This document shows positions 10,891 through 53,100 of a stretch of DNA of 64,000 nucleotides, in pieces (positions within the stretch are counted from its first letter, which is position 1; each line of letters starts with the position of its first letter). The notes beneath the pieces were generated by a model. It was not told the origin of the DNA. It saw nothing but the letters and a program-made list of their open reading frames with translations, and did no database searches. Origin of the DNA: Pristiophorus japonicus (taxonomy: Eukaryota); contig NC_091980.1 of NCBI RefSeq assembly GCF_044704955.1, positions 131,316,001-131,380,000 on the forward strand, written 5' to 3'. The position numbers and the translations under genes were made by a program.

Positions 10891-10958
10891 TTTGAGGTTA
10901 GTTAAATTTCAGTTTGGTACTTCATCAAAGTTTAGACTTCAATATAAAAAAAAATAAG

Positions 10959-13519
10959 ATGGCTGCTCAAGTGTGTCAGAACTACCACCAGGACTGTGAG
11001 GGTGCTGTCAACAAGCAGATCAACATGGAGCTCTATTCCTCCTATGTTTATCTCTCTATGGTAAGTTTTGTATATTTGACCACTTCACAATGGAGACTAT
11101 GTAATGAGAATTGACAATTCTATGCTGTATTCCTCACCCCGCCCCCCCCCCCCCCCACCCACTAAACTATGCCCAGCTGGGTTCTTTTTTGCTATAATGT
11201 AATGCAATTCATTTTCATATATATTCCTTAATCCACTTATCTCTGTTTCTTGCAGTAGCTAAACTATATTGAGTATCTTGAATCGTGGCGACTCAATTTT
11301 CTGGGCTCTTGTGAGCTGTGATTTCTGAATGTGTCCTCCATTCTAAATCACTCCATAGACTTTCATGGGCTAAGGCTGAGATTTTTGTTGGATAAGGGTA
11401 AATGGAATTAAACTACAGATGAGCTATAATGAAATTGAATGTGGAGCAGGATTGAGGGGCTGAATGGCCTACTCATTTTTCCTAGTATTTTTCTCCTGTA
11501 ATTTTAAGGACCAGTTTGTACCCTTCTGTCTTTTCTCAAACTCTTTTGCTTTATTGGTTTTAAAGTCTTAAGCAATCGTGTCACTACTCAGTGGAACTCA
11601 ACACCTCTGTCACAGGGGAGGAAGGCAATCATGAAGTGCCTCAAATTCTGAGGGGATCTGATAACTTCTGTTCCTTGGTATCTGGTTTTCGTCTGAAATG
11701 CCTTGTCTAGTGTTGAAGGTGCCAAATTAATGTTGCTTGTGCTAGATTTGTTTCCTTGGGATGAATGTAGCCAGTAAAACTGGGCATGTTTTTCTCCTTT
11801 TTGTACTGTGAATTATGCACTGTGACCACATCTACTCCTACTTTAAGGGGTCTGCTTAGAGTTTTATAGTTCCCCTGAACTAGCCTGCAGAAAATATATC
11901 TGGGTTAATAAACAATGATTGTGATTCTGGTGATAAAAGGTTCCTTCACTAATTTCCAGAGCTACAATGAATATTGGGTGCCAAAATGAAGGTTCCAGTT
12001 TTGAGCATGTTCAATCAAAGCTGAATTGGTGATTATGGAATGATACAGCACAGGAGACCATTCAATCCACTGTGTCTCGCTAAATGTTGGGTGGAGCGAT
12101 ACAACTCGTCCATTCCCTGCGTGTTCCCATAGCCCTGTCCAGTATTTATCCAATTTCCTTTTGAATGTTGCCATTTAATCTGCTTCTACCACCGTTTCGT
12201 GCCCTGCATGCATCTATTTAAAAAAAAAAATAGTAGGAATTCCACTGGTTCTTTTGCAAATCACCTAAGTTTCCAGATTGTTTGTTGTAAAATTATCCAC
12301 TGTCTGTACCAGGTTCATTATTAGATAGTTTCCATTACAAGGCCCAGGATAATGGGTCTGCCATGCAATATCCAACTACTCCTCTTCTGATCTCTCCACA
12401 GTCCTTCTACTTTGACCGGGATGATGTTGCCCTGCGTCACTTTGCGGCGTTCTTCAAGAAGCAGTCCCATGAGGAACGTGAGCATGCTGAGAAACTGATG
12501 GAATTCCAGAATCGGCGTGGAGGACGGATCATCTTGGCGGACATCAAGGTTGGATTTAATAAACTTGAGGTCTTCTATCTCAGTCCCCTTGAACTGATTG
12601 GAACCAAACAATATGCAGCATAAACAAGCCATTTGTTAAGCTGGTCTTTGCCGGTGTTTATACTCCAACGAGCCTCCTCCCACCTTGCTTCATCTTAACC
12701 CCTCAGTGTATTGTTCTATTCCTTTCTCCCCATGCACTTGCCTAGCTTCCCCCTTTAAATGTTCCCTTTAAATTCCTTCTCAATATAACTCCAGTAGTTA
12801 TGATGGTCTAGGCCATCACATTGGTTCACGGTAATGTAGACTTTTGATTGCACCCCTAATTTTGTTCTATACTTTTTGCATGTTTTCTTAATTCAGTGTA
12901 AGTGAACTGTTAAAATGTTCTTTCTTTCTAGAAACCAGAGCAGGATGAGTGGAGCAATGGTCTGGAGGCAATGCAGAGAGCTCTGCAGATGGAGAAGAAT
13001 GTGAACCAGAGTCTGCTGGATCTGCACAAACACTCCACTGGGAGGACAGACCCTCATGTAAGTTTTTTTTTAATGATGTGGGCTTAAGTTGAAAAATTGT
13101 TGTCCTTGAGCCTAATTAAAAGATCTCCATGCATAATAGCTTTTTTTGGAGGGAGGTGCAGGGGAAAGTTGGCCTACTGTGGACAGTGACTCATTAAATG
13201 TATCCCAGTGATCTGAGCACCTATTGTGCAGTAAGTTTAATCTAATGAGGCAGTAATTCCATCAATCTTAATTGCACCACTTGAATATCCTCCAGTCAAG
13301 AGGATTAAAATCTCAACTCCAGGGGATGCTCTGATGATGGTCATAACTTGTTTCCTCCTTCAGTTGTGTGACTTCCTGGAGACTCATTACTTGGATGAAC
13401 AAGTGAAGATGATCAAGAAGTTTGGAGATCACATCACCAACCTGAAGAGACTGGGAGCCCCTGAGAATGGCCTGGGAGCTTACCTGTTTGACAAGCACTC
13501 CCTGGGGGAGAGTGACTAA
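10959..13519 (+). CDS. FTH1-like: Ferritin H/M-type subunit, copy 1, 4 exons, intact 176-aa ORF
   Basis: Exons 10959-11060, 12402-12548, 12932-13057 and 13364-13519, all GT-AG and phase 0, as in vertebrate ferritins. Protein [130 protein letters not shown]. Ferroxidase ligands equivalent to human H E27, Y34, E61, E62, H65, E107 and Q141 are present. Confidence 0.95.
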
Positions 13520-13663
13520 ACTGAATGATGGTTCAAGCTTATTGTGTTTAGTACTTGTATGTATATAAATTGGGATCCCTGTCCTGTAGGGAATGATGGC
13601 TTCTGACTTTGTACAAAGAGCTGTGAGACCTGGGCTCCTGACGTGAATTGTAACATAACAGTA

Positions 13664-13669
13664 AATAAA
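13664..13669 (+). terminator. Polyadenylation signal, copy 1
   Basis: AATAAA about 145 nt after the stop, followed by a GT/T-rich tract. Same position in all copies. Confidence 0.7.
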
Positions 13670-14576
13670 CTATTCAACATTGGACTAGGTTTTGTCTCCT
13701 TGTATGTTTGAGTAATTGCTTATGTTTCAATTTACATAATTCGGTTTGCATCAAAGAATTGAATAAGGATTTAGTATGAAACTTCATACATTAATGAGCC
13801 ACGAGTCGGCCTTGGCTTGTGTGCTGTTTGACAGCTTGGTATTTCCAACAATGTCTTTGGCTTTCAGTCAAACTTTACAGGTGCCCATGTTTTCAGAATT
13901 GCACAGAAAAATACCATTTGGCCCAACTGGTCCATGCTGGTGTTTGTTCTGGCCCTATTAGCATATCTTTCTATTCCTTTTGAGCTTTCCCCTTTAAATT
14001 CATTTGTGTTTTGTATTCAGTTATTACAGTGGGTAGCTCAGTAAACTAAATGTACCACTGCTGCTATAGACTTTCTGTTAAAATATGTGGGCAAAGAACA
14101 AGTAATTGCAGTAATGTCAGCACTTATTGCCTATCTCCAATTGCCCTTGGTGTGTCATCTGGTGCAACTGAATGGCTTGCTAGGCCATTTCATCAGGCAG
14201 TTAAGAATCCACTACCAGGCTATGGGTCTGGAGTCACATATAGGCCTGCTGGGGTAAATTGGCAGATTTCCTTAAAGATTACTGAGCTGGGTTTCATGAT
14301 CACCAGTATAGATACTAGTACTTATTTTTAGATGTATTTTAATTAACACAATTTAAATTGTGCAGCTGCCGGCATAGGTTTTTGTCTCTTGCATCATTAG
14401 TTCAGATGTAGCAAAATATAAGCCTTCTCGGAGTAAATGTTTAAAGAAAAACACCAACATTAAATACTTATCCTGCAACTCTTCCACCTGCCCCTACCCC
14501 TCCCCTGCTAGGCCTGTTCCATCAACTTATGGAGGAGCTGTTAGTATTGGTTTTATGTCATTTATTCAACCAGCAT

Positions 14577-14789
14577 TGTAACCTCTATAATCTGACCTAA
14601 GTTGTACAGAGAACAATGACCACTAGGTGGTGAACTTGTGGGATTCGCACCTAACCTGGACCTTCAGATATAAAAGGGGAAGATCTACCCACTTTCATTT
14701 GAGTGCTAAGGAATAAAGGACAGGTCACAGACTGACCTTTTCTCGCATGGGCCTCGTGTGCATTTATGCTGTATAGTAAGGATGTATCA
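14577..14789 (+). mobile_element. Solo LTR of a second Gypsy family
   Basis: TG..CA ends with internal TATAAAA and AATAAA. Matches the LTR at 41373-41574. Confidence 0.8.
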
Positions 14790-15009
14790 CTCCATATTTA
14801 TATTTAGTCCTGTTGTCCATTTTGTACCACACAGCAATCATCCTTTCAAAATCCTCCTGGGTTTTCATTTGTCCCCTTCTCGTGCATGAATGGATTCAAA
14901 TGTTGAAGTTGGAGCTGCAATAATCCAGTGTTTACAAGTTAATTAAGGACTTTGCTGATAACTGCATTGGCTGCAATTATATTGCAATCGTTAGTCTAAC
15001 AATGTTAAT

Positions 15010-15610
15010 TTTTTTTAATTCTGGGATGTGGACATCACTGGCAAGGCAAGCATTTATTGCCCATGAGAATGTGGTAAGTCACCACCTTACAGGCCTGTGG
15101 TGAAGGTACACCTACAGTGCTTATATGGCAGGAGTTCCATGATGTTGACCCAATGGCGATATATTTACAAGTCAGAATGGTGTGTAACTTGGAGGGGAAC
15201 TTGTAGATGGTGGTGTTCCCATGTGGCTGCTGCCTGTGTCCTTCTAGTTGGTAGAGCTTGTGGGTTAGTAGGTGCTGCCGAAGAAGCTGTGGCAAGTTGC
15301 TGCAGTGCATCTTGTCGATGGTACACACTGCAGCCATGGTGCACCGGTGGTGGAGACAGTGAATGTTGAAGGTGATGGATGGGGTGCCAATCAAGCGGCT
15401 TCTTTGTCCGGGATGGGGTCGAGCTTCTGCAGAATTGTTGGAGCTGCACTCATCCAGGCAAGTGGAGAGTATTCCATCGCACTCCTGACTTGTGCCTTGT
15501 AGATGGTGGAACGGCTTTGGGTTATCAGGTGAGACACTCAATGCAGAATACCCAGCCTCTGACCAGTCTTGTTCCCAGAGTATTTATGTGGCTGGTCCAG
15601 TTAAACTTCT
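15010..15610 (-). mobile_element. CR1-type (HER1-like) LINE 3' fragment
   Basis: ORF2 C-terminus remnants (LHHRCTMAAVCTI..KMHCSN) and the same 3' tail as the HE1-like SINE. Confidence 0.7.
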
Positions 15611-15624
15611 AGTCTTGTACGCTA

Positions 15625-15988
15625 CTGATCTTTGGGCATCCTGTGCAGAGGGGAATGGGTAGATCGGAAGGCCTCCTTATCAGACTGCTCCTGGGCATTG
15701 CCAAGGTGGCCATTAATTGGTCCAGTCAGCGAGCGGTTGAGGGGCTTGTTTAGCCCGACCGCCTGCCTCTCTTCCGCGGTTACGTTCAAGCCAGGCTTTC
15801 CCTGGAGATGGAGCATGCGATGTCTACCAGTACATTCGTGGCCTTCCATGAAAGGTGGGCACTGGATGGACTGGAGTGTATCACCCCCGCCAACGACATT
15901 TTAATTCGATTGGTTTAATTTGTTAATTTGTCGGTTCTAGTGCCCCTTTTTATAAGGGGGCACTTTAATTCAAGTTTTACAAAAATAG
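15625..15988 (+). mobile_element. Tx1 3' fragment with decayed TSD
   Basis: LIFGHPV motif; 3'UTR hairpin AGTGCCCCTTT-TTAT-AAGGGGGCACT at 15939-15964. Confidence 0.75.
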
Positions 15989-16029
15989 TTGTAGAGCTGT
16001 TGACATGTCATGGCGCACCATCTTGCTGT

Positions 16030-19030: not shown

Positions 19031-19032
19031 TT

Positions 19033-19902: not shown

Positions 19903-22900
19903 GAGAGTGCAGCAACATAGAGTGGCATTTGTGAGTTTGATAAGTGGGTGAGTTCAGGCAAGCATGGGTGGCAGGTTCTGTTTTGTCTTGTTTTTCCTAC
20001 CAGTGCTGACACTAGAGCAGCTGATAATGAGTGCGAGAGTAGGAGATGAAGGTCCAGAGACCAGTCCAACCAGCTGCAGACAAAGATAGAGGGGTGAGAA
20101 ATCGAGAGTTGACGTCAGAGTGCGGGGAGGAGGAGCAGCGTCAGCGGCAGTCCGGGGTGAGCGGCCTACAAAGGCCCAGTGGCAGTCGGTGAGCAAGCAG
20201 TGCGGGAAGGAGGGACAAGAAATCAAAAAGTGACGACACAGCCAAGCTGGTAAGTGGTTGGCTGATCGGCTGGTGAGTGTATCTCTTTGATTTTGTTTTC
20301 TAATAGATAAGAGGATAAATTACTAAATAGCTGTTTAGTGTGTGTAGTGGGAGTCAGTGTTTTTGCTGGGTAATTTAAGGGTAACTAGTGGGATGGCAGG
20401 GCAGCTTGTTCAAAAGGAATGCAACATTTGTGCCATGTGGGAATTCCTAGATGCTTCCCGCAACGGGGATGACCACATGTGCAGGAAGTGTCTCCAGCTC
20501 CTCCAACTCGAGCGCCGAGTCTCGGAGCTTGAGCGAGGACTGGAAGCACTGAGGAACATCCGAGAGAACAAGAGGTACATGGATAGCTCCTTTCAGGCAT
20601 TGGTTACCCCACAGATTAAAAGGGTACAGGAGGATAGGGAATGGGTGACCGTAGCACACAAGAGTATGGCGAGGCAGGTAGTGCAGGAGTCGCCTGAGGC
20701 TATCCCGCTCTCCAACCGGCACTCTATTCTGACTACTGGCGAGGGCAGTGATGCCTCTGGGGAATGCAGCCAGGGCCAAGTCCACAGCACCATGGGTGGC
20801 TCAGCTGCACAGCGGGGGAGGAAGAAGACGGGAAGGACTATAGTGATAGGAGATTCAATAGTTAGGGGAGCAGATAGGCGCTTCTGCGGCAGCAAAAATG
20901 ACATCAGGATGGTCTGTTGCCTCCCTGGTGCAAGGGTCAATGATGTCACTGAGCGACGGCAGAGCATTCTGGGGAGGGAAGGGGAACAGCCAGTGGTTGT
21001 GGTCCACATTGGTACCAATGACATAGGTAGAAAGAGGGGTGAGGTCCTGAAAGCTGAGTTTTGGGAGCTAGGAGTAAGATTGAAAGCCAGGACCTCAAAG
21101 GTGGTAATCTCGGGATTACTGCCAGTGACACGTACTAGTGAGGGTAGAAATAGGAAGGCTAGTCAGATAAATACGTGGCTGGGGCATTGGTGTAGGAGGG
21201 AGGGCTTTAGTTTCCTGAACAATTGGAACCACTTCTGGGGTAGGTGGGACCTGTATAAGTCGGACAGGTTACACCTCAACAGAGACGGGACCAATGTTGT
21301 CACGGGTGGTTTTGATAGTACGATTGGGAGGGCTTTAAACTAGCTTGGCAGAGGGATGGGAACCCAGGAGAGGGTTCTGAGCACCCAGGAGAGGGTTCTG
21401 AGCGAGTTAGTGTGGGTGAGAGCTCAGATGAACAGAACCCCAAGAAAGGATGCAAAAGCAAGGAGGCAACAGAGCAGAGTAGCACTGGGGTAAGTGTAAA
21501 CCACAAGGTGATAGGAAGGGACAATATGTTTGAATATAAAGGGGCTGCAGGAGGGGTCAAAACTAAAAATCATGATTTAAAAACTAGTATTAAAACACTT
21601 TACCTAAGCGCATGTAGCATTTGAAACAAAGTAAATGAGTTGACGGCACAAATGATTACAAATGGGTCTGATTTGGTGGCCATTACAGAAACATGGTTGC
21701 AGGGTGGCCAAAACTGGGAATTAAACATAAAGGGGTATCTGACAATTCGGAAAGATAGACAAGAAGGGAAAGGAGGTGGGGTAGCTCTGTTAATAAAGGA
21801 TGATATCAGGGCAGTTGTGAGAGACGATATTGGCTCAAATGAACAAAATGTTGAATCATTGTGGGTGGAGATTAGAGATAGTAAGGGGAAAAAGTCACTG
21901 GTGGGCGTAGTTTATAGGCCCCCAAATAATAACTTCACGGTGGGGCGGACAATAATCAAGGGAATAATGGAGGCATGTGAAAAGGGAATCATGGGGGATT
22001 TTAACCTACATATCGATTGGTCAAATCAAATCGCACGGGGTAGCCTTGAGGAGGAATTCATAGAATGCATACGGGATTGTTTCTTAGAACAGTATTTTAC
22101 AGAACCTACAAGGGAGCAAGCTATCTTAGATCTGGGGACTACAGTGGGATGAGGGCAGAGTTGGCTAAAGTAGACTGGGAACATAGACTAAACGGTGGCA
22201 CAATTGAGGAACAGTGGAGGACTTTTAAGGAGCTCTTTCATAGTGCTCAACAAAAATATATTCAAGTGATAAAGAAGGGATAACCAGCCGTAGATAACCA
22301 AGGAAATAAAGGAGAGTATCAAATTAAAAACCAATACGTATAAAGTGGCCAAAGATAGTGGGAAACTAGAAGATTGGGAACATTTTAAACGACAGCAAAG
22401 AATGACTAAGAAAGCAATAAAGAAAGGAAAGATAGATTACGAAAGTAAACTTGCGCAAAACATAAAAACAGATAGTAAAAGCTTTTACCGATATATAAAA
22501 CGGAAAAGAGTGACTAAAGTAAATGTTGGTCCCTGAGAAGATGAGAAGGGGGATTTAATAATGGGAAATGTGGAAATGGCTGATACCTCAAACAATTATT
22601 TTGCTTCGGTCTTCACAGTGGAAGACATAAAAACCATGCCAAAAATTGCTGGTCACGGGAATGTGGGAAGGGAGGACCTTGAGACAATCACTATCACTAG
22701 GTGGGTAGTGCTGGATAGGCTAATGGATCTCAAGATAGACAAGTCCCCTGATCCTGATGAAATGTATCCCAGGATATTAAAAGAGATGGCGGAAGTTATA
22801 GCAGTTGCATTCGTTATAATCTACCAAAATTCTCTGGACTCTGGGGAGGTACCATTGGATTGGAAAGCAGCTAATGCAACGCCTCTGTTTAAAAAAGGGG

Positions 22901-24331
22901 GCAGACAAAAGGCAGGTAACTATAGGCCGGTTAGTTTAACATCTGAAGTGGGGAAAATGCTTGAAATTATCATTAAGGAAGAATTAGCGGGACATCTAGA
23001 TAGGAATAGTGCAATCAAGCAGACGCAACATGGATTCATGAAGGGGAAATCATGTTTAACTAATTTAATGGAATTCTTTGAGGATATAACGAACATGGTG
23101 GACAGAGGTGTACCGATGGATGTGGTGTATTTAGATTACCAAAAGGCATTCGATCAGGTGCCACACAAAAGGTTACTGCAGAAGATAAAGGTACGCGGAG
23201 TCAGAGGAAATGTATTAGCATGGATAGAGAATTGGCTGCCTAACAGAAAGCAGAGAGTCTGGATAAATGGGTCCTTTTAGGGTTGGCAATCAGTGGATAG
23301 TGGTGTGCCACGGGATCGGTGCTGGGACCACAACTGTTTCCAATATACATAGATGACCTGGAAGAGGGGACAGAGTGTAGTGCAACAAAATTTGCAGATG
23401 ACACAAAGATTAGTGGGAAAGCGGGTTGTGTAGAGGACACAGAGAGGCTGCAAAGAGATTTAGATAGGTTCAGCGAATGGGCTAAGGTTTGGCAGATGGA
23501 ATACAATGTCTGAAAATGTGAGGTCATCCACCTTGGAAAAAAAAACAGTAAAAGGGAATATTATTTGAATGGGGAGAAATTACAACATGCTGCGGTGCAG
23601 AGGGACCTGGGGTCCTTGTGCATGAATCCCAAAAGTTAGTTTGCAGGTGCAGCAGGTAATCAGGAAGGCGAATGGAATGTTGGCCTTCATTGTGAGAGAG
23701 ATGGAATACAAAAGCAGGGCGGTCCTGCTGCAACTGTATAGGGTATTGGTGAGACCGCACCTGGAGTACTGCGTGCAGTTTTGGTCACCTTTCTTAAGGA
23801 AGGCTATACTAGCTTTGGAGGGGGTACAGAGATGATTCACTAGGCTTATTCCGGAGATGAGGGGGTTACCTTATGATGATAGATTGAGTAGACTGGGTCT
23901 TTACTCGTTGAAGTTCAGAAGGATGAGGGGTGATCTTTTAGAAACATTTAAAATAATGAAAGGGATAGACAAGATCGAGGCAGAGAGGTTGTTTCCACTG
24001 GTCGGGGAGACTGGAACTAGGGGGCACAGCCTCAAAATACGGGGGAGCCAATTTAAAACCGAGTTGAGAAGCAATTTCTTCTCCCAGAGGGTTGTGAATC
24101 TGTGGAATTCTCTGCCCAGGGAAGCAGTTGAGGCTAGCTCATTGAATGTATTCAAATCACAGATGGATAGATTTTTAACCAATAAGGGAATTAAGGGTTA
24201 TGGGGAGTGGGCGGGTAAGTGGAGCCCTGGCCAGATCAGCCATGATCTTGTTGAGTGGCGGAGCAGGCTCGAGGGGCTAAATGGCCTACCTCTGTTCCTA
24301 ATTCTTATGTTCTTATGTTCTTATGTTCTTA
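19903..24331 (+). mobile_element. Near full-length CR1 LINE (5'UTR, ORF1, disrupted APE-RT ORF2)
   Basis: ORF2 motifs AITETWL, VYRPP, MGDFN, YLDYQKAFD, KFADDTK with stops and a deletion near 22133. (TTCTTATG)n tail at about 24302-24333. Confidence 0.93.
20393..21343 (+). CDS. CR1 ORF1p (zinc finger, coiled coil, SGNH/GDSL esterase), open 316 aa
   Basis: CxxC..CxxC, heptad region, IVIGDSIVRG, VVHIGTND, DRLHLN. Confidence 0.85.
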   Translation: MAGQLVQKECNICAMWEFLDASRNGDDHMCRKCLQLLQLERRVSELERGLEALRNIRENKRYMDSSFQALVTPQIKRVQEDREWVTVAHKSMARQVVQESPEAIPLSNRHSILTTGEGSDASGECSQGQVHSTMGGSAAQRGRKKTGRTIVIGDSIVRGADRRFCGSKNDIRMVCCLPGARVNDVTERRQSILGREGEQPVVVVHIGTNDIGRKRGEVLKAEFWELGVRLKARTSKVVISGLLPVTRTSEGRNRKASQINTWLGHWCRREGFSFLNNWNHFWGRWDLYKSDRLHLNRDGTNVVTGGFDSTIGRALN

Positions 24332-30619: not shown

Positions 30620-31095
30620 GGGATCAGTTAGATGGACTCAGTTTGTAGCGCTCTCATCTCACAGTCAGAAAATTATGGGTTTGAGTCCCACTCCAGAGAA
30701 TTGAGCACAAAATCTCGGCTGACACGACAGTGCAGAAATGAGGGAATGCTGCGCTGTTGGAGATGCCATCTTTTGGATGAGATGTTTAACCGAGGCTCCG
30801 TCTGCCCTCGCAGGTGGACAGAAATGATCTCATGGTCCCATGGCACTATATCGAAGAAGAGCAGGGGAGTTATTCCCGATATCCTAGCCAATATTTATTC
30901 CTCAAACAACATCACTGAAAACAGATTTTGTATTCATGATCACGTTGCTGTTTGTGGGACCTTGCTGTGTGCAAATTAGCTCCGCATTTCCAACAACAGT
31001 GACTGTGCTTCAAAAAGTACTTCATTGGCTGTAAAATGCTTTGGGACATCCTGAGATCATGAATAGCGCTATATAAATGCAAGGCTTTCTTTCTG
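30620..31095 (+). mobile_element. Deu-domain SINE (SacSINE1-like)
   Basis: tRNA-like head plus Deu core. Paralog of 3960-4292 and 46170-46632. Confidence 0.65.
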
Positions 31096-31305
31096 GACTG
31101 CAGTCTATCTCATTGTTACAGCAATTTCATGGTAATAACACATGAACTGTACATCCCATGGTCCCCTCCACATCTAGCTGATGTGTGTACAGGTACTCAA
31201 TAAACTTAGAAGTGATGGTGTATCTGAGAACTTGTGTTTGACACATTCATCACAAGCACTTTCCATTCACCTGACACACTGTTGGTTGCTTTGCAGACTC
31301 ACTGA

Positions 31306-32174
31306 AGGGTGGTTTTAGGTGGCAGGCGGATGAGAGGGCTGTGTTTGGCAAGGTGACCAGAGTCAGGGACATACTGGATGGCAGAGGAGCGGACTGGATG
31401 GCGCCAGAGGAGCTGGCATGGTGCCTATCCTGGGCCAAAGTCCGGCGCGCGGCCAATGCCATCGAGTCGCTAAAAACAGCACTGCGCCCTGACTCCTTTA
31501 GGTGTGTCGAGGAGGCCTCAGCAGGTGGGGCGATCCCATCCGGACGGAATTCCTCATCGGCTTCAAGCCTGTCCTCCCTTTATTTATTGGGGACTTGGCC
31601 TGGAGGGTGTTGCATGGAGCAGTCCCGTGCAATCGATTTTTAAGTCGGTTCACGGACTCCCAGGCCGTCTGTAATTTCTGTGGTCTAGAGGACTCCTTGT
31701 TCCATATCTATGATGAATGTATGAGGTTGCAGCCGCTCTTTCAATATTTGAAGGTACTGCTCCTCAAATTCTGGTTGCACTTCAATCCCACGATCCTGAT
31801 CTTTGGGCATCCTGTATGGAAGGGAGTGGGCAGGTCGGAAGGCCTCCTCGTAGGACTGGTCCTGGGCATGGCCAAAATGGCTATTAACCAGTACAGGCAG
31901 CGGGCGGTCGAGGGGGTCGTTCAGCCCAACTGCCTGCCTCTCTTCCGCGGTTACATTCGAGTGACGGGTGTCCCTGGAAATGGAGCACGCGGTGTCCACC
32001 AGTACGCTCGCAGCTTTCCGCGAGAGGTGGGCACCGGAGAGACTGAATGCATCATCACACCCAGCAACCAAATTTTAATTTGACCATTTATTGTTTAGAA
32101 AGTTTTATTGGTTAATTTGTCAGTTCTAGTGGCCCTTTAAAGGGGGCACTTGATTTATTGTTTTACAAAAGTAG
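31306..32174 (+). mobile_element. Tx1 3' fragment, duplicate of 4512-5392
   Basis: Same TSD TTGCAGACTCACTGA at 31291-31305 and 32175-32189. Confidence 0.85.
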
Positions 32175-32506
32175 TTGCAGACTCACTGATCTGTTTGGAT
32201 GTTGCATCAAACCCGCAGATACCTGCAAATGACCAGAACAATTCAGAACTATTGAAAAGACACTGACTCGCAAACAACAGAGGATGTCAAGGTGGCCATT
32301 ATCTGGTCCGATCAGAGCGTGGGCGATGGGGTGATCTCTCCATCTGCCTGCCTCTCTTCCGTGGCTTATGTCCGTACCCAGGTGTCCCTGGAGAGGAAGC
32401 ACGTGGTGTCTGCCAGAATGCTTGAGGCTTTCCGTGACCGGTGGGCACCAGAGGGACTGGAGTGCAGCGTGGATACAGGGAATTAAATTATAATTTGAAA
32501 CATTTT

Positions 32507-35500
32507 TGTAGTATCCTTACACACTACTATAAATTCACACGAGGCACATTCTGCAGACAAGGTCACTCTGTGAACCAAACCTTTATTCACAGGACCAAGA
32601 AGTGATGACCCTGCGTGGGACCTCCCTTTATATACCTGGATGACCAGGTGAGGAGTGTCTCCCACAAGAACATCCCCTGTGGTCAAGGTGTGCATTTCTT
32701 GGGTGTATACAGTATGCAGTGTTATTACATGACGGTTACAGTTACATGAAGGTTACGTACATGACATCACCTCCCGCCAACATTTTATAGGGTCAAAGAT
32801 TAAGTCGTTCGGGCAGTCGATGCTCTCTCGTGGAGCGCTGCAGTTGGGGCTCTGGTTGTTGAGCTTGGCATGCGTCTCTGTCACCTGTGGTGATTCCGGC
32901 TTGTCCAGGCTGGTCGCAGGGACTGTGCATGCTGCTGAAAATTCTTGTTGCTCATTCACTGGCGATGGTGTTGGCAGCATCTCATGATCTTCCTCAGGTT
33001 CCTCAGTGTCCATGCTGAACTGTTTGTTTACTTGGTCCAGATGCCTGCGGCATATCTGTCCATTGTTAAGTCTTACCACTATTACCCTATTCCCCTCTTT
33101 GCCAAATACAGTACCCTCAAGCCACTTGGGCCCCAAAGCGTGATTAAGAACAAATACAGGGTCATTGATTTCTCTTCATCTCCCTTTTGAGTTACGGTCA
33201 TGGCACTCATTTTGGGACTGGCGCTTGCCCTCAACAATGTCTGACGGGACTAGATGAATTAGGAACAGCCGAGTTTTAAGTGTACATTTCATGAGTAGTT
33301 CATGACTCCCGTGAGCGAATGCGGTTGGGACCTATAGGCCAGCAGGAGGCGCGATAGGCGGCATTGAAGGGAGGGTCCTTGAATCTGGAGCATGCCTTGC
33401 TTTATGATTTAGACTGCACGTTCCACCTGGCCTTTGGAAGGCGGGTTGAACGGTGCTGTGCTGACATGTTTGATGCCATTACCCGACATGAACTCCCAGA
33501 ATTCATAGCTAGTGAAACACGGGCCGTTGTCGCTAACCAGAATGTCCGGCAAGCCGTGGGTTGCAAAGACTGCACGGAGACTCTCCACAGTGGTGGATGT
33601 CATGCACGAATTCAATATGATGCACTCGATCCATTTCGAGTATGCATCAACAACAATGAGGACCATTTTTCTCATGAACGGGCCCACGTAGGCTACATGA
33701 ATAAGTAACTATGGCCTGGTGGGCCAGGGCCACGGGCTGAGTGGGGCCTCCTTGGGGGCATTGCCCAGCTGGTCACACGTCGTGCACCTGCGAACACAGT
33801 GTTCCAGGTCTGAGTCAATTCCCGGCCACCATACATGTGACCGGGCAATGGCCTTCATTAGCACAATGCCTGGGTGCTCGCTGTGGAGTTCCCTGATGAA
33901 TGCTTCCCTTCCCTTCTGGGGCATGACTACCCGGCTGCCCTATAGTAGGCAGTCGGCTTGGATGGAGAGCTCATCCACCCATCTGTGAAACGGTCTGACC
34001 TCCTCGGGGCATGCTCCGTGTGCGGGCGCCCAATCCCCAGTCAGGACACATTTCTTAATCAAGGATAGGAGGGGATCTCTGTTGGTCCAGATTTTGATCT
34101 GGTGGGCTGTGTTGCGGGAGCCTGCGGTGTCAAATGCATCGACAGCCATGACCATCTCAGCGCTTTGCTCCGCTGCCCCATCAGTGGTGGCCAGTGGAAG
34201 CCTGCTGAGCGCATCAGCGAAATTTTCAGTGCCGGGCCAGTGTCGTATGGTGTAGTCATAGGCAGCCAGCGTGAGAGCCCATCGCTGTATGCGAGCTGAC
34301 GCATTGGCATTGACAGCTTTGCTGTCTGACAACAAATGTTAATCGCTTCTGATCCGTTTCTAACTTGAACCTTCTGCCAAAAAAGTACTGGTGCATCTTT
34401 TTCACCCCGTAGACACATGCGAGTGCTTCCTTTTCAACCATCCCATATCCCCTTTCTGCTTGGGAGAGCGACCTGGAGGCATAAGCCACAGGTTGGAGTT
34501 GGTCCTCATCATTACTCTGCTGCAACATGCACCCAACCCTATAGGATGTTGCATCACATGTCAAAATCAATTTCTTGCAGGGATTGTACAGGGTCAACAG
34601 CTTATTAGAACAAAGGAGGTTTCGCGCCCGATTGAAAGCCCGTTCCTGACAGTCCCCCTAAAACCAATCGCAACCCTTACGCAGGACCAGGTATAGTGGC
34701 TCCAACAATGTGCTTAAGTTCGACAGAAAGTTCCCGAAATAGTTCAAGAGTCCCAGAAATGAATGCAACTCTGATGTGTTGCCGGACCTGGGCGCACGAC
34801 GAATCGCCTCCGTTTTGGATTCGGTAGGCCGGTTCCCGTCTGCAGCATTCCTCCTGCCCAAAACCTCGACCTCTGGGGCCAAAAACACACACTTGGACTT
34901 CTTTCGTCGCAGGCCTACATGGTCCAGTCGGCGTAGCACCTCCTCCAGGTTGTGGAGGTGTTCCTCGGTGTCTTGACCCGTGATAAGCATGTCGTCCTGA
35001 AATACGATTGTTCCACTGATGGATTTGAGCAGGCTTTCCATGTTCCTTTGAAAGATAGCGGCCACTGATCGAATGCCAAACGGACACCTGTTGTAGACAA
35101 ACAGCCCCTTGTGTGTGGTGATGGTGGTCAGTAGCTTGGGTTCTTGGCCAGTTCCTCGGTCATGTAGGCTGAAGTGAGGTCCAACTTGGTGAACAGCTTG
35201 CCACCTGCCAGCGTGGCAAAATGATGCTCCGCTGTAGGAAAAGTATATTGGTCTTGTAGTATCACTCAGTTGATAGTGGCCTTGTAGTCGCCACAGATCC
35301 TGACCGAGCCATCCGTTTTTAGGACAGGGATGATGGGGTTTGCCCAGTCGCTGAATTCAATGGGCGAAATTATGCCCTCTCTTAGCAACCTGTCCAACTC
35401 ATTCTCACTTTTCTCCCGCATTACATACGGCACAGCTCTGGCTTTGTGGTGCACTGGTCTGGCGTCCGGGGTGACGCGTATCACTACTTTGGTACCTTTG

Positions 35501-37255
35501 AAAGTCCCGACACCAGGTTGAAATAGTGACTCAAATTTCTGTAGGACCTGTGAGATGAAATGGCGTGCACATCCCCCCATTTCCAGTTCATCTCGGCTAG
35601 CCAGCTTCTCCCCAAAAGTACGGGACCATTTCCTGGGACAATCCAGAGTGGCAGCAGGTTCTCTGATCCATTATGTGTGACCACCAACATTGCACTGCCT
35701 AGCACTGGGATGATCTCTTTGGAGCACGTCCATAATTGCGTGTCAATGCGTTCTAGTTTGGGTCTGCTAGCTCTGAGTGGCCATAGTTTCTCGAATTGTT
35801 GGACACTCATAAGTGACTGGCTAACCCCTGTGTCCAGCTCCATGCGTACCAGAATGCCGTTTAAGAGGACTTTCATCATCATAGGTGGCGTTTTTGTATA
35901 TGAGCTGTGGATGTTCGCCACATGAACCCACTGAACTTCAGTGTCCATTGCTTTGTCCCAAGCATCAACCTGCCTTGCAGACCCCTCTTGTAGTTCATCT
36001 GCCTCGTAAATTAGCCTTGCTGTGGGCTCCCTGCACATTCTGGCTAAATGTCCGCTGAAGTTACAATTTCTACAGTTAAATTGTTGAAACCTCCAGGTTT
36101 TTGCAGCATGTCTGCCCCCACACCTCCAGCATGAGCTGAGATCATTGTGAACAAAAGAGCTGTTACCAGGCATTCCTCTCTGATTGTCTCTTTGATTACT
36201 CTTGAGCACTCTGTTAGTGGGTGTCAATAGCCCCATCCCGGGACGTATTGTCCACTGTGATGGTGTAAATGTCCATTCAACCTGGCATTGTCTCTGTTGA
36301 GGACCCACTCTAGAGTCTGTTGCTGCCTGAGTGGTGTTGAATTGTCCTTGCCTGACTGCGGGGTTTTGCGTCGCGTTTACAATGTTAACTCCCTGATCCA
36401 TCGCCATGTTGGAAGCAGAGTTGCGCGCGTATATTATCTTGGTTTCCTCCTCCCCCGCCATGAAGGTCTGAGCCATCAACGCCGCCACTTCCAAGGTTAA
36501 GTCCTTGGTCTCAATTAGCTTTCTGAAAATCCTGGAATGACCAATGCCCTCAATGAAGAAATCCCTTAACATCTCCCCGCTGCAGGCGTCTGTGAACTTA
36601 CAGGGGCTGGCCAATCGCCGAAGGTCTGCAACGAAGTCCGGTATGCTCTGTCCGTCCCGACGTCGGTGTGTATAGAATCGGTGTCGGGCCATGTGTATAC
36701 TGCTCGCCGGTTTGAGGTGCTCACCAATCAGTTTGATGAACTATTCAAAGGTTTTGTCCGCCGGCATCTCGGGTGCGAGCAGATCTTTCATCAGCGCGTA
36801 GGTCTCAGGTCCACAGCTGGTCAGTAGATGCGCCCTTCGCTTGTCAGCCGCTGCATCTCCCAGCCAGTCCTTTGTGAAAAAGCTCTGCTGGAGCCTCTCA
36901 ACGAAATCGTCCCAGTCCTCACCAACACAGTACCGTTCCTCTGTGCTACCAGTGGCCATTCTCGTGAGTCGCTGATTCCCGTTTCTTGTCGCCAAATGTA
37001 GTATCCTTACACACTATTATAAATTCACACGAGGCACATTCTGCAGACAAGGTCACTGTGTGACCCGAACCTTTATTCACAGGACCAAGAAGTGATGACC
37101 CTGCGTGGGACCTCCCTTAAAATACCTGGATGACCAGGTGAGGAGTGTCTCGCACAAGTTCACCCCCTGTGGTCAAGGTGTGCATTTCTTGGGTGTATAC
37201 AGTATGCAGTGTTGTTACAGGAAGGTTACAGTTACATGACGTTACATACATGACA
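32507..37255 (-). mobile_element. Full-length decayed Gypsy LTR retrotransposon, duplicate of 5731-10458
   Basis: LTRs 32507-32766 and 36997-37255, perfect ATTTT TSD, gag-PR-RT-RH-IN remnants. Confidence 0.95.
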
Positions 37256-37524
37256 ATTTTTATGTTAGTATTGTCATAATTTGGACTTATTGTTTATTCC
37301 TCCTTATAAAGGAGGCACTTATGGTTTAAATGTTTCCGATAGCTGATTTAATCATCCCAATTAGGGCAGTGGGCCTATCTGCGAATTGGCACAGACTCGA
37401 TGGGCCGAATGGCTTTCTTCCCTGCTGGAACCATTCTATGATTCTATGAATTGAATAGCCTAAAGATTAAACCTGTGATTCTGGATATTTGAACTGTGTT
37501 TAGGACAATTGTGATCCTTATTGA

Positions 37525-37680
37525 GTTGTCAACCAATGATGCTCATTCTTCAAAGATCTGACTGGCTCTGGGAGTCCATTTCCCCTCCTCCCTTTACATG
37601 ATTGGTGCTCTGAGAGGCTGATTGGACAATTATCTAGGCTGCCGCGCCCTCGATTATCCAGCAGTATAAATACAGGAGTT
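37525..37680 (+). promoter_or_regulatory. Ferritin copy 2 proximal promoter
   Basis: CCAAT, two ATTGG boxes, and TATAAATA at 37665-37672, 84 nt before the ATG. Confidence 0.7.
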
Positions 37681-37748
37681 TGAGGTTAGTTAAATCTCAG
37701 TTTGGTACTTCATCAAAGTTGAGACTTCAATATAAAAAAAAAAATAAG

Positions 37749-40342
37749 ATGGCTGCTCAAGTGTGTCAGAACTACCACCAGGACTGTGAGGATGCTGTCA
37801 ACAAGCAGATCAACATGGAGCTCTATTCCTCCTATGTTTATCTCTCCATGGTGAGTTTTGTATATTTGACCACTTCACAATGGAGACTATGTAATGCGAA
37901 TTGACTAAATTCTATGCTGCATTCCTCACTCCCCCCCACCCCAAACAATGCCCAGGTGGATTCATTTTTGAAGCTATAATGTAATGCAATTCATTTTCAT
38001 GTATATTATTTAATACACTTATCTGTTTCTTGCAGTAGCTAAACTCAATTCTGAGTATCTTGAATCTTAGCGACTCAATTTCCTGTGCTCTTGTGAGCTG
38101 TGAGTTCTGAATTTGTATCCTTGGTCTAAATCACTCCATAGCTTTTCATGGGTTAAGGCTGAGATTTTTGTTGGATAAGGTTAAATGGAATTAAACTACA
38201 GATGAGCTATAATGAAATTGAATGTGGAGCAGGATTGAGGGGCTGAATGGCCTACTTGTATTCCTAGTGTTTTTCTCCTCCCTGTAATTGTAAGTACCAG
38301 TTTGTTCCCTTCTGTCTTTTCTCTAACTCGTTTTTGCTTTAGTGGTTTTAAAGCCTTTAGCAATCGTGTCTCTACTCAGTGGATCTCTGTCTCTCTGTCT
38401 CTGTCTCTGCCTTCCTCCCCCTGAGAGAGAGAGACAATCATGAAGTGCCTCAAATTCTGAGGGGTTTTGATAACTTCTATTCCTTGGTATCTGGTTCTCC
38501 TCTGAAATGCCTTGTCCACTGTTGAAGGTGCCACATTAATGCTGCTTGTGGTAGATTTGGTTCCTTGGGATGAATGTAGCCAGTAAAACTGGACCAGTTT
38601 TTCTCCTTTTTTGTACGATGTGAATTGTGTACTGTGACCAGATCTCCTACTTTAAGGGGTCTGCTGTTCCCCTTAACTAGCCTGTAGAAAATATACCTGG
38701 GTTAATAAACAATGATTGTGATTCTGGTGACCAGAAGGGTATAAATCTTGAAGTTCCTTCTCATTTCCAGAGCTACAATGAATATTGGGTGCCAAGATGA
38801 AGGTTCCAGTTTTGAGCATGTTCAATCAAAGCTGAATTGGTGATCATGGAATGATGCAGCACAGGAGGCTATTCAGTCCATTGTGCCTCGCTGAATGTTG
38901 GGTGGAGGATACAACTTGTCCACTCCCTGCATGTTCCCATAGCCCTGTCCAGTATTTATCCAATTTCCTTTTGAATGTTGGCATTTAATCTGCTTCCACC
39001 ACCCTTTCATGCTCTGCATGCATCTTTTTTTTAAATTTAAAAAAAAAAAAAAAATTGTAGGTATTCCACTGGTTCTTTTGCAAATCACTAAGTTTCCAGA
39101 TTTTGTTGTAAAATTATCCACTGACTGTTCCAGGTTAGTTAAGTAGATAGTTTTCATTACAAGGCCCAGTATAATGGGTCTGCCATGCAATATCCAACTA
39201 CTCCTCTTCTGATCTCTCCACAGTCCTTCTACTTTGACCGGGATGATGTTGCCCTGCATCACTTTGCTGAGTTCTTCAAGGACCAGTCACATGAGGAATG
39301 TGAGCATGCTGAGAAACTGATGAAATTCCAGAATCGGCGTGGAGGATGAATCATCTTGGCGGACATCAAGGTTGTAGTTAATAAACTTGTGGTTTTCTAT
39401 CTCTGTCCTCTTGGACTGATTGGAACCAAACAATGTGCAGCATATACAAGGCATTTGCTCAGCTGGTGTTTATACTCCAATGAGCCTGCTCCCATCTTGC
39501 TTCATCTCACCCCCTCAGCATATCATCCTATTCCTTTCTCCCCATGCACTTGCCTTGCTTCCCCTTTAAATATTCCTTTAAATTCCCCCTCCATATAACT
39601 CCAGTGGTTATGATGGCCTAGGCCATCACATTGGTTCATGGTAATGTAGACTTCTGATTGCATCCCTAATTTTGTTCTATACTTTTCGCATGTTTGCTTA
39701 ATTCAGTGTAAGTGAACTGTTAAAATGTTCTTTCTTTGCAGAAACCAGAGCAGGATGAGTGGAGCAATGGTCTGGTCGTGATGCAGAGAGCTCTGCAGAT
39801 GGAGAAGAATGTGAACCAGAGTCTGCTGGATCTGCCCAAACTCTCCATTGAGGGGACAGACCCTCATGTAAGTTTTTATTTCATGATGTGGGCTTAAGTT
39901 GAGAAATTGTTGTCCTTGAGCCTAATTAAAAGATCTCCATGCACAAGTTTTTTTTTTTTTTGTTTTGAGGGGGGTGGGGTGGAGTGAAAGTTGGCCTACT
40001 GTGGAGTGACTCGTAAAAGTATCCCAGGATCTGCGCACCTATTGTGCAGTAAGTTTAATCTAATGATGAAGTAATTGCACCACTTGACTATCCTCCAGTC
40101 CAAGAGAATTAAAATCTCAACTCCAGGGGATGCTCTGATGATCCTTGATATCTGCGTCTGGTCATAACTTGTTTCCTCCTCCAGTTGTGTGACTTCCTGG
40201 CGACCCACTACTTGGATGAACAAGTGAAGATGATCAAGAAGCTTGGAGATCACATCACCAACCTGAAGAGACTGGGAGCCCCTGAGAATGGCATGGGAGT
40301 GTACCTTTTTTTGACAAGCACACGCTGGGGGGGAGTGACTAA
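37749..40342 (+). pseudogene. FTH1-like: Ferritin copy 2, pseudogene
   Basis: Exons 37749-37850, 39224-39370, 39742-39867 and 40185-40342. In-frame TGA at 39347-39349 (GGR>GG*), +2 frameshift in a T-run near 40306-40312, plus R63C and H118P equivalents. Confidence 0.9.
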
Positions 40343-40485
40343 ACTGAATGATGGATCAAGGTTATTGTGTTTAGTACTTGTATTTATATAATTGGCAACC
40401 CTGTCCTGTACGGAATGATGGCTTGTGACTTTGTACAAAGAGATGTGAGACCTGGGTTCCTGCTGTGAAATGTAACATAACAGTA

Positions 40486-40491
40486 AATAAA
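40486..40491 (+). terminator. Polyadenylation signal, copy 2
   Basis: AATAAA at the paralogous position. Confidence 0.6.
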
Positions 40492-41372
40492 GTGTTCAAC
40501 ATTGGACTAGGTTTTGTCTCCTTGTATGTTTGTGGTTGCTTATGTTTCAATTGACATAATTTGGTTTGCATCAAAGAATTGAATAAGGATTTAGTATGCA
40601 ACTTCATACATTTAATGAGCCACGAGTCGGCCTGGGTTTGCATGCTGTTTTACAGCTTAGTATTTCCAACAATATCTTTGGCTCTGTCAAACTTTACAGG
40701 TGCCCATGTTCTGGACCTATTAGCATATCTTTTTATTCCTTTCTAGCTTCCCCTTAAATTCATTTGTGCTCTTTGCATTCAGTTATTACTGCAGGTAGCT
40801 CAATAAACTGAATGTACCACTGCTGCTATAGACTTCCTGTTAAACTATGTGGGCAAGGAGCAAGTAACTGCAGCAATGTCTGAACTCATGGTCTGCCTTT
40901 ATTGCCTATCTCCAATTGCCCTTGGAGTGTCATCTGGTACAACTGAGTGGCTTGCTAGGCCATTTCAATGGGCAGTTCAGAATCAACTACCAGGCTATGG
41001 GTTGAGAGTCACATATCGGCCTGCTGGGGTAAGTTGGCAGATTTCCTTAAAGATTATTGAGCTGGGTTTTATGATCACCAGTATTGATACTAGCTTTTAT
41101 TTTTAGATGTATTTAATCCACAAAATTTAAATTATGCAGCTGCCAGCATAGGTTTTTTTGTCCCTTGGCTCATTAGTTCAGATATTGCAAAAATATAAGC
41201 CTTCTGGAAGGAGTAAATGTTTAAAGAAAAACACTGACATTAAATACTTATCCTGCAACTCTTCCACCTACCCATCCCCTGCTTGGCCTGTTCCATCAAC
41301 TTATAAACCCAATACTAGCAGCTTTCCCCGCCCCCCCCCCCCCCCCCCCCATGTCATTTATTCAACCAGCTT

Positions 41373-47339: not shown

Positions 47340-47520
47340 AGTTGTCAGCCAATGATGCTCATTCTTCAAATATCTGACTGGCTCTGGGAGTCCATCTCCC
47401 CTCCTCTCTTTAGTTGATTGGTGCTCTGAGAGGCTGCAACTTCTGATTGGGTAATGAGGAATGTCACTCATCATCTAACCTGCCACACCTTGGATTATCC
47501 AGCAGTATATACTGAAGGAG
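47340..47520 (+). promoter_or_regulatory. Ferritin copy 3 proximal promoter
   Basis: CCAAT near 47349, two GATTGG boxes, TATATA at 47506-47511. Confidence 0.7.
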
Positions 47521-47585
47521 TTTGCGGTTAGTTAAATCTTAGTTTGTTGCTTTAACAAACTATAGATTTGTGATAAGAAATCAAA

Positions 47586-50200
<2,615 letters not shown>

Positions 50201-50343
50201 ACTCTCTGTCTGGATCAAGCTTATTGTGTTTAGTACTTGTATGTATAATAACTGGGACCCCTGTTCTGTAGGGAATGATGGCTTGTGATGTTTGACACTG
50301 ATCTGTGAGACTGAGGCTCTTGCTGTAAAATGTAACATAACTA

Positions 50344-50349
50344 AATAAA
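50344..50349 (+). terminator. Polyadenylation signal, copy 3
   Basis: AATAAA at the paralogous position. Confidence 0.7.
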
Positions 50350-51249
50350 CTGTTCAACATTGGACTGGGTTTTGTCTCCTTGTATGTTTTGAGTGGTCAT
50401 TTTTAATTTAACAATATGATTTACATCAGACAAGAATTACATTGAGTTGTGCAACAGTGTTATGGAATTCAGTCCTACGAATTTTTTGTTTTTTCTCTGG
50501 GGTTTATTGAGTTGTTATAGTCAGACACGTGTTGCAAAGTGTGAAATGTACGAGGTTGTGTTCAGACTATTAACACCTGAGAAATTGGCTGAGGGACAAA
50601 ACATGGTCTGAGGGAGGTTATAGGGAGTGTCTTAAATAGGTTGAGAGGGAATGGTGGAGCATGGGATCTAGATAGTGGATTAAAAATACCTGTTCCCATT
50701 AGTGAACTGCCATTACATAACTGATAACTCAATACAACAAAAGTTGCTGGAACATGTGTTAAACACTGGGAATGTTACTCACTAAATCAGTCTCACCATT
50801 TCAGATCAATGAAGGGGGGAAAAGTCCAGGATTAGCATCCTATTTGATATATGTATTGGTCCTGGAATTAGCAGTTTGTAGTCAGTAACTGCTGCAGATC
50901 CTGTTTAGTTATTATTGCAGGTCGTTCAGAAACTAAACTCACCACTGCTGCTGTAGACTTCCTGTTAAGCTTTGTAGGCAGAGCAGGAACTGCTGTACAG
51001 AGCAGCAGTGTCCGAGTTCATTGAACTTCGGACTACAATTGGGTGAGGAGGGAAAGCAGCAGGTGCCATCAGCTTGCTGTCACTGCTTCATCGATTAGTG
51101 TGGATACCCTCGTGTGGTGGTTCTCGGACAGCTTCTTCTACCTACTCCCATCGCGATCGAATAACTTGGCAACCTGATCAATGCTCACATGAATAAGGTA
51201 TCCAAGGACTGCCAGTGCAGCTGGACTCCATTTCCCACAGTTATACTCT

Positions 51250-52765
51250 AACCCCTTTCCCTCACTCGCAGATCCACGATGCAGTTCCCCTTGTCCTCAC
51301 CTTCCCTACCATGAGCGTCCACATTCAATGAATCATTCTCCGTCTTTTCTGCCATCTCCAGAGCAATCCTACTCGCAAACGCATCTTCCCTTTCCTTCCC
51401 CTTTCAGCATTGTGAAGTGACCTCTCTGACTGACACTCTGGTCCTCAATCACCCCAAAGACCCCCTCCCTATCCCATGACACATTCCAGTGAAAGTGCAG
51501 GAGATGCAACACCTGTCCGTTTACCTCCTCTCTTCCCAATGTTCAGAGCACCAAACACTCCTACCAGTTGAAACAGTGAATTAATTGTACTCCTTACAAT
51601 TTAGTATACTCTATTCATTACTCACGATGCAATCTCCTCGACATTGGGGAGACCAAATCCTCTTTTCTTGGACAGTCCCTCGAAATCGAGGCTGACTTGC
51701 TTTCACACTCAAAATGCGATCTCTAGTGACTGAAGAATCCAATGTGATATGTAAATGTAGGGCACAGTGGTGTGGAGGAACGGGAGGTTGGGTTGCCGTG
51801 CGCTCCTTCCACTCTCAATGCTTGGCTTGAGTTTGCTCTCGGCGAAGAGACTTGAGTTGTTCAGCGCCCTCCCCGATATGTTTCCTCCACTTTGGGCGGT
51901 CTTGGGCCAGGGATTAGTAGGTGTCGATGGTAATGTTATACTTTTTCAAAGAGGCTTTGAGGGTGTTCTTGAAGCGTTTCCTCTGCCCAACTGGCGCTCA
52001 CTTGCCTTGTTGGAGCTCCGAGTGTTTTAGGAGCCTCGAGTCAGACATACGGACGATGTGGCCCGTCCCGCGGAGCTGATCAATTGTGGTCAATGCTTCG
52101 ATGCTGGGGATGTTGGCCTGAGCGAGGACACTGATGTTGATGTGCCTATCTTGCCAATGCATTTGCAGAATCTTGCACTTTCAACGGTGGTGGTACTTCT
52201 CCAGTGTTTTGAGATGCCTGCTGTACATAGTCCATGTCTCTGAGCCAAAAAGAATGGCGGTTATTACCACTGCTCTGTAGACCATGAGCCTGGTGCTGGG
52301 TTTGAGGTCCTGGTCTTGAAACACTCTCTTCCTCAGGCAACCGAAGGCTGCACTGAAGGCGGTGTTGGACCTCGTCGTCGATGTCTGCCCTTGTTGACAG
52401 GAGGCATTGGGGAGACCAAATGTAGATTGGGTGGCCGCTTTGCAAAACACCTCTGTTCAGTCTGCAAACTTCCGGTCGCCTGTCACTTTAATTCTCCGCT
52501 CCCCTCACACTCTGACCTCTCTGTCATCGGCCTCTTACACTGTTCCAACAAAGCTCAACATAATCTCCTCAGCTTTCTATTAGGCTCGTTATAGCCTTCT
52601 GGACTCAGCATCGAGTTCAACAATTTCAGACTAAAACCTCTGTCCATTTCCTTTTTAGCTGTTGATGATCCTGCTGCACCCATTTACACCTCTTCTGGAC
52701 CCATCTTTTGTTCCTTTACTTGTCCCATTACCTTCTCCATTTGCTTTGTACTTTCATACCTTTTG
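51250..52765 (+). mobile_element. Penelope-like fragment interrupted by an RTE
   Basis: Homologous to 16900-17680. The GIY-YIG remnant IGETKCRLG.RFA.HL is split at the RTE TSD. Confidence 0.75.
51659..52404 (-). mobile_element. RTE LINE 3' fragment with 17-bp TSD
   Basis: TSD CATTGGGGAGACCAAAT at 51642-51658 and 52405-52421. AAFGCLRKRVF..LMVYRAVV..GSETWT motif. Confidence 0.88.
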
Positions 52766-52895
52766 TCCATCCCCCTTCTTCCAATTACTTGATTGGTGCT
52801 CTGAGAGGCTGCAACTTCTGATTGGGTATTGAGGACTGTCACTCATCCTGCAGGCTGCCACACCCTGGGTTGTCCAGCAGTATAAATACAGGAGT
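52765..52895 (+). promoter_or_regulatory. Ferritin copy 4 promoter, upstream part replaced by Penelope sequence
   Basis: Two GATTGG boxes and TATAAATA at 52881-52888. Homology to the other promoters stops near 52765. Confidence 0.6.
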
Positions 52896-53100
52896 TTGAG
52901 GTTGGCTATATTTGAGTTTGTTGCTTTCACAAAATTTTGATTTGTAAAACGGAATAAAGATGGCTTCTCAAGTGTGTCAGAACTACTACCAGGACTGTGA
53001 GGATGCTGTCAACAAGCAGATCAACATGGAGCTCTATTCCTCCTATGTTTAGCTCTCTATGTGAGTTTTGCATTTTAGACCACTTCACAATGGAGTCTAT

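Follow-up and report, generated by a model that had tools for sequence, protein, structure and literature searches.

Degenerate iron-responsive element remnants in the leaders of an amplified ferritin array of Pristiophorus japonicus

The stretch of DNA analyzed here is a 64-kb segment of contig C4 of Pristiophorus japonicus (G000:C4:131316001-131380000; hereafter, the window). It holds four ferritin copies, numbered 1 to 4 and all on the forward strand, which belong to an array spanning ~5.6 Mb of C4. No modelled array gene (159 modelled) has a canonical iron-responsive element (IRE). The leaders of one type, type A, carry a degenerate homolog of the IRE of a single-copy ferritin gene on contig C19 (the C19 gene). 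It is probable that the array represents a maternal ferritin amplified in dosage and independent of the iron regulatory proteins (IRPs), from a lineage whose C19-type IRE decayed.

The exon-2 search gave 367 candidates, and the best 150, which were scored, all fall on C4 between 127.85 and 133.40 Mb. A 24-nt exon-1 motif, with up to one mismatch, has 278 matches genome-wide and 0 in the control; among the matches listed, 98 of 100 fall in the array. The combined match lists contain 214 distinct gene positions. The modelled genes comprise 83 intact, 43 broken, and 31 partly fetched genes, and two with a bad splice site; this sample is skewed to intact copies because many were chosen by protein score. 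As 81 of the 83 intact genes are distinct over the coding sequence (CDS) and introns 2 and 3, they are not simple assembly duplicates. Match positions in C4 129.05-129.48 Mb and 132.28-133.12 Mb recur at offsets of ~260 kb and ~125-185 kb, which suggests recent multi-gene segmental duplications. The 151 leaders analyzed are classified into type A (113, including all four window copies) and type B (38).

The following features are observed in the window.

3958..13891, forward strand: 10-kb duplication unit with copy 1, 90.8% identical to 30748-40710 (with copy 2)
10877..10884, forward strand: TATA-like box of copy 1, variant TACAAATA
10914..10936, forward strand: IRE remnant of copy 1; old loop CAAAGT from 10926; 13/19 core, P = 0.014 by shuffle
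10959..13519, forward strand: copy 1, intact ferritin gene, 176 aa; exons 10959-11060, 12402-12548, 12932-13057, and 13364-13519
37665..37672, forward strand: TATA box of copy 2
37702..37724, forward strand: IRE remnant of copy 2; old loop from 37714; 12/19, P = 0.059 alone
37749..40342, forward strand: copy 2, pseudogene; TGA at codon 76 (exon 2) and exon-4 frameshift
47506..47513, forward strand: TATA-like box of copy 3
47544..47566, forward strand: IRE remnant of copy 3; old loop CAAACT from 47556; best fold is the alternative hairpin discussed below; 11/19, P = 0.24 alone
47586..50200, forward strand: copy 3, intact ferritin gene, 176 aa; exons 47586-47687, 49026-49172, 49570-49695, and 50045-50200
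52881..52888, forward strand: TATA box of copy 4
52918..52940, forward strand: IRE remnant of copy 4; old loop CAAAAT from 52930; AACGGAA at 52948-52954 lies outside the remnant
52960..56322, forward strand: copy 4, pseudogene; TAG at codon 31 (exon 1), donor lost, exons 2-3 broken

Copies 1 and 3 are intact, with four exons each, and copies 2 and 4 are pseudogenes. The nearest named relatives of the window ferritins are cartilaginous-fish ferritins. A preceding sequence-only reading of the window had described a multi-copy family of four genes. The family is confirmed; four is far too few, and the death of copies 2 and 4 was overlooked. The TATA-like boxes lie 79-84 nt 5' of the ATGs at 10959, 37749, 47586, and 52960. 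In all four copies, the stretch from TATA to ATG is free of CAGTG and CAGAG, and none has a CAGWGH hexaloop, in agreement with that reading. The Rfam scan of the window at the gathering threshold gave no match, and the scan of the copy-1 leader up to E = 10 gave no IRE family. The four sequence strings that the reading quoted as decayed IREs are all present where it placed them. Its assignment of AACGGAA in copy 4 to the IRE lower stem was wrong. This heptamer is far beyond the IRE 3' arm and therefore is not IRE-derived; other copies read AAAAAGAA or TTAAAGAA there, an A-rich tract of which copy 4 has a derived form.

Single window copies do not establish the fossil IRE that had been proposed. 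Local alignment of copies 1 to 4 to the C19 IRE gave P = 0.080, 0.31, 0.079, and 0.13, and the ungapped match over the 19-nt core is 13, 12, 11, and 11 (P = 0.014, 0.059, 0.24, and 0.25). The homology becomes evident when the array members and the C19 paralog are added. The type-A majority sequence, derived from 99 distinct leaders aligned without the IRE genes, is identical to the C19 IRE at 17 of 20 positions (P = 0.0014; 5000 dinucleotide shuffles), over a 20-nt window picked by the alignment itself. Between TATA and the end of the loop, it can be aligned colinearly with the C19 gene (P = 0.002; P = 0.11 for the ferritin gene on contig C14). At least 13 of the 19 core positions match in 56 of the 113 type-A leaders and, as background, in 61 of 5006 windows taken from non-coding sequence of these genes, although the copies are not independent. 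All 64 genomic occurrences of the remnant pattern are in the array. In the global alignment, a gap of ~12 nt covers the 5' lower stem, and the distance from loop to ATG is reduced from 130 to ~30 nt. Thus, the type-A remnant is a degenerate homolog of the C19 IRE array-wide, and the proposed fossil holds for type A and not for type B, which has no significant remnant.

Type B aligns with the C19 gene 46 nt past TATA (P = 0.0002), and it also aligns loosely with type A over the remnant. Given this loose alignment, the interpretation of type B as a clean deletion of the IRE is not secure. A simple deletion of the IRE in the whole array, with a chance resemblance in AT-rich leaders, would be consistent with the lack of significance by local alignment of any single window copy, with type B, and with Rfam, which does not pick an IRE even on L036. 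The 17/20 majority match, its colinearity with the C19 gene from TATA, and one subfamily with 14 consecutive identical bases argue against this explanation, and we consider it very unlikely.

The remnant appears to be dead as an IRE. In total, 106 type-A sites were scored; seven of the 113 were dropped, with their best match outside 26-46 nt from the ATG. The commonest loops are CAAAGT (50), CAAACT (11), and CAAGGC (7). IRE position G16 is absent in 103 sites, and the three sites with G16 have no valid stem. The bulged position C8 is at the expected place, five bases ahead of the loop, in all four window copies and in 74 of the 106 sites, and positions C14, A15, and G18 are kept in 92, 100, and 77 sites, respectively. 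All five pairs of the upper stem are formed in three sites. The ensemble probability of the upper stem is at most 0.34 among the 106 sites and 0.0 in the four window copies, and it is 0.99 in the contig C14 and C19 genes. Each of 500 shuffles reached at least the IRE pairing of the 64 representatives (68 minus four mis-anchored). Divergence between copies is 0.24 in the remnant, 0.16 in intron 3, and 0.12 in the promoter, and synonymous divergence (dS) is 0.15. With its pairing lost and its divergence faster than that of introns, the element is most likely no longer functional, and it would no longer bind IRPs.

Some type-A leaders could instead be weak, non-canonical IREs under partial IRP control. 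The retained C8, C14, A15, and G18 are consistent with this, as are the sites that satisfy a loop-blind stem rule (22 of 106) and the non-canonical loops known from in vitro selection (PMC2896125). The loss of G16 in 103 of 106 sites, the missing lower stem, an upper stem that is never the favoured fold, and the unconserved pairing make it quite unlikely. For human FTL, mutations in the loop produce the strongest derepression and the highest levels of ferritin (PMC3585816).

Another possibility is that the old IRE refolded. The substitutions that destroyed the loop at the same time allow pairing to the former 5' arm, and the resulting cap-proximal hairpin, TTTGTTG-CTT-CAACAAA, closes around the old C bulge, which lies in its loop. 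All three changes of the type-A majority from the 20-nt IRE core create pairs in this hairpin. In 64 leaders, 73.6% of cells pair with a covariation of 0.149; none of 500 shuffles is as high, and the value exceeds those of all six slid registers. The copy-3 leader has z = -3.5. These values are weakened by the fact that the structure was taken from the consensus and that kinship inflates the shuffle test. RNAalifold found no consensus structure, the median z is -0.6, and intact and broken genes do not differ (P = 0.22). Of 106 predicted leaders, only 32 have a pair probability above 0.5, the outer stem is mostly 5' of the predicted start, and divergence at the site is no slower than in introns. 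One template switch at a quasi-palindrome would probably give the same pattern without function. Selection of this hairpin as an oocyte translational control element is therefore doubtful. It is likewise doubtful that cartilaginous fishes escaped IRP control by turning the IRE into another hairpin that regulates a maternal array of several hundred genes in oocytes. If the latter were true, it would be a traceable change of one RNA regulatory structure into another.

Every one of the 151 promoters has CCAAT elements, and 109 of them have a consensus TATA. A processed retrocopy on contig C11 (L256), with exons 1 and 2 fused, has its start 55 nt 5' of the ATG. This start is ~30 nt past the position of TATA, which argues against an upstream exon. 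The sequence immediately upstream of L256 has no match in the fetched array DNA. A second retrocopy, on contig C3, includes the remnant from -44. These retrocopies show that the remnant is present in the mRNA; L256 is a one-case proxy for rapid amplification of 5' cDNA ends. An upstream non-coding exon that brings an IRE is extremely improbable. The conserved AG 5' of the remnant is readable as an acceptor, but the promoters have CCAAT and TATA at the frequencies given above, L256 begins at the predicted start, and no IRE on C4 was found by the tight IRE pattern or, among the best 82 of 2.8 million candidates, by Rfam.

Processed copies of array genes are found on contig C3, at C4:112.56 Mb, and on contig C11 (L037, L038, and L256), which suggests that the array is expressed in the germline. 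Two presumed RNA runs of distant similarity (X1 and X2; aligned at 80%) show exon-exon joins and deep exon coverage, and are silent on tissue or start. The promoters of the two types differ. Type-B promoters, located in C4 128.98-131.13 Mb, have a CAGCTG E-box in 25 of 38 cases (1 of 113 in type A). The CACCC box is observed in 75 of 113 type-A promoters and the AP-1/ARE-like motif in 62 of 113, and both are absent from all 38 type-B promoters. Possibly, this represents two expression programmes in one array.

Intact IREs are present elsewhere in the genome. The search with RF00037, in which the best 82 of 2.8 million candidates were scored, gave six matches: the ferritin genes of contigs C14 and C19 and four orphan pieces of the C19 leader. 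None is on C4. The tight IRE pattern has 13 matches in the genome, none of them on C4. A canonical-loop stem rule, modelled on PMC2896125, is passed by two of 165 gene models, the genes on contigs C14 (FTH1) and C19, both single-copy. CAGWG at 12-42 nt from array-type ATGs has 17 matches (16 on C4 and one on C19), and none passes the stem rule. The Rfam scan of L036, which is among the best-preserved leaders, gave no IRE family. In intron 1 of eight array genes, 116-125 nt 5' of exon 2, there is a perfect-stem CAGTGA hairpin on the sense strand; this is probably chance.

The four orphan insertions of the C19 5' leader, each with an intact IRE, are on contigs C10, C12, C17, and C18 (L002, L003, L004, and L005). 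They have a common end at a U-rich tract (-59/-60) and, relative to the gene, a common A-to-C change, and target-site duplications are not clearly seen at these leaders. They look like a short IRE RNA, such as human FTL_short (PMC5137419), copied into the genome, or like products of internal priming. L253 (C20:22404824), L254, and L255 are processed copies of the contig C14 FTH1. L253 carries a small deletion and its frame is open; C8 of its IRE is changed to G.

The array proteins are under purifying selection. Among 79 distinct in-register intact CDS, the ratio of nonsynonymous to synonymous divergence is 0.21-0.24 with a mean dS of 0.11-0.18. All seven ferroxidase ligands, which we take to be E27, Y34, E61, E62, H65, E107, and Q141 (human H numbering), are kept in 74 of the 79. 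By these ligands, the proteins are predicted to be ferroxidase-competent. They are presumably cytosolic, with 176 aa and no leader extension. E134K, in the three-fold channel, is observed in seven of the 79 proteins, and E62N in three array proteins.

The dS of the array to the C19 gene is ~1.5, and that to the contig C14 gene is 3.45 or saturated. Two array-type genes without an IRE are located 53 and 92 kb from the C19 gene: L096/L243 (C19:93055483, reverse strand), whose dS to the array is ~0.5, and L242 (C19:93093920, forward strand). In one of them the frame is open but the exon-3 acceptor reads AA; the other is broken. L096/L243 groups with type B in the CDS tree. In a quick protein tree, the contig C14 gene groups with vertebrate H chains, and the array forms its own chondrichthyan clade with rays and chimaera (Shimodaira-Hasegawa approximate likelihood ratio test, SH-aLRT, 94), not the FTH1 group. 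The distance to glycogen synthase genes is 1.8 Mb for the contig C14 gene and 4.3 Mb for the C19 gene, and C4 has none; these positions do not decide orthology. The leader alignment, dS, and adjacency favour a C19-type parent.

If half of the dS of 1.5 is placed on the array branch, a dead element retaining 17/20 is unlikely (P = 0.003); a branch of 0.15-0.4 fits (P = 0.09-0.72). Because 17/20 is improbable on a long neutral branch, the IRE probably persisted beyond the first duplication, and its loss probably preceded the radiation of the present copies. As for expression, 155 and 179 ferritin copies, in clusters common to two sharks, with an age of 250 million years or more, and expressed in the ovary, have been reported in a preprint on other assemblies (10.1101/2024.09.09.611499). 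Of the tissues suggested by the sequence-only reading, this ovary expression favours the oocyte over erythroid, immune, or stress settings.

The proposed explanation is as follows. A C19-type IRE-bearing ferritin would have been duplicated, and the duplicate lineage would have kept its IRE for long. The IRE would then have been lost, with ~12 nt of the 5' lower stem and ~100 nt of the downstream untranslated region gone, CAGTG changed to CAAAG, and the 3' upper stem altered. This loss would precede the spread of the present C4 copies, by tandem and segmental duplication with birth and death, to a few hundred genes. Since leaders of 45-55 nt are unable to form an IRE, IRP1 and IRP2 should not repress them. 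How much ferritin is made would depend on gene dose and on the activity of the promoters, with the ovary as the most likely site, and the outcome would be a large maternal store of ferroxidase-competent protein. The type-A remnant would now be unconstrained.

Several points count against this explanation, besides the alignment-chosen 20-nt window and the small share of candidates scored with RF00037. Type B does not resemble the C19 IRE (P = 0.83; 38 of 151 leaders), and the 151 leaders, those with enough upstream sequence, come from roughly 280-370 copies. With the loop ignored, 22 of the 106 type-A sites pass the stem rule, and C14 and G18 are both retained in 70; the loss of IRP binding is thus something we infer. 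In the protein tree, the C19 gene is unplaced and not joined to the array, and the array lies beside a shark 'middle-like' clade (SH-aLRT 84). A third IRE-bearing ferritin, an ortholog of that clade, was sought in the genome and not found. The timing is rough because dS is near saturation and the protein tree gives no support for the parent. Likewise, we infer that the C4 array is the cluster of the preprint.

The shark expansion in the available portion of the preprint is like the C4 array in being a large cluster, mostly full length, and common to distant sharks. Array-type proteins are found across sharks, rays, and chimaera. In that portion, the copies are labelled FTL/FTH1, the word 'iron' appears 0 times, and no IRE is mentioned; the C4 array forms a clade of its own, distinct from the true FTH1 of contig C14, and its annotation as FTH1/FTL is misleading. 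Compared with RF00037, the vertebrate ferritin 5' IRE, the type-A remnant is at the same place after the start and largely keeps the 5' arm, C8, C14, A15, and G18. It differs in the changed G16 and U17, the mismatched upper stem, and the missing lower stem, and it is not a member.

FTMT and FTHL17 are also ferritin paralogs. FTHL17 is not known to have an IRE. According to PMC7760355, both have restricted expression; FTMT lies outside IRE/IRP control, has no introns, and is mitochondrial, and Fthl17 forms a family of six genes in mouse, while FTHL17 lacks ferroxidase activity. The shark genes, in contrast, have three introns, a ferroxidase centre, and hundreds of copies. The yolk ferritins of Schistosoma and Lymnaea are female reproductive, as proposed for the array, but are from invertebrates (PMC1488847), and a title cited there describes Schistosoma ferritin mRNAs without an IRE.

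The large ovary-expressed expansion in sharks was already reported; the IRE loss, the remnant, and the two leader types are described here. In the literature searched, which leaves most subscription journals outside its coverage, no paper on IRE loss in a shark ferritin array was found. The explanation offers a mechanism for the hundreds of ferritin genes in sharks, hitherto unexplained. If IRE loss came first, amplification would be a route by which the ovary makes ferritin in very large amounts regardless of iron. This fits an ovary that stores iron in bulk, with production free of an RNA switch set by iron level. An intact IRE gene, two IRE-less neighbours, and graded remnants in one genome allow the loss of an RNA element to be traced base by base.

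The intergenic parts of the window contain retroelement fragments at 2025-2822, 22537-23280, 34658-35356, and 20348-21343 (three RVT_1 matches and one GDSL-esterase-like open reading frame). An 80-nt tandem repeat is located at 53713-54140, within an insertion in intron 1 of copy 4.

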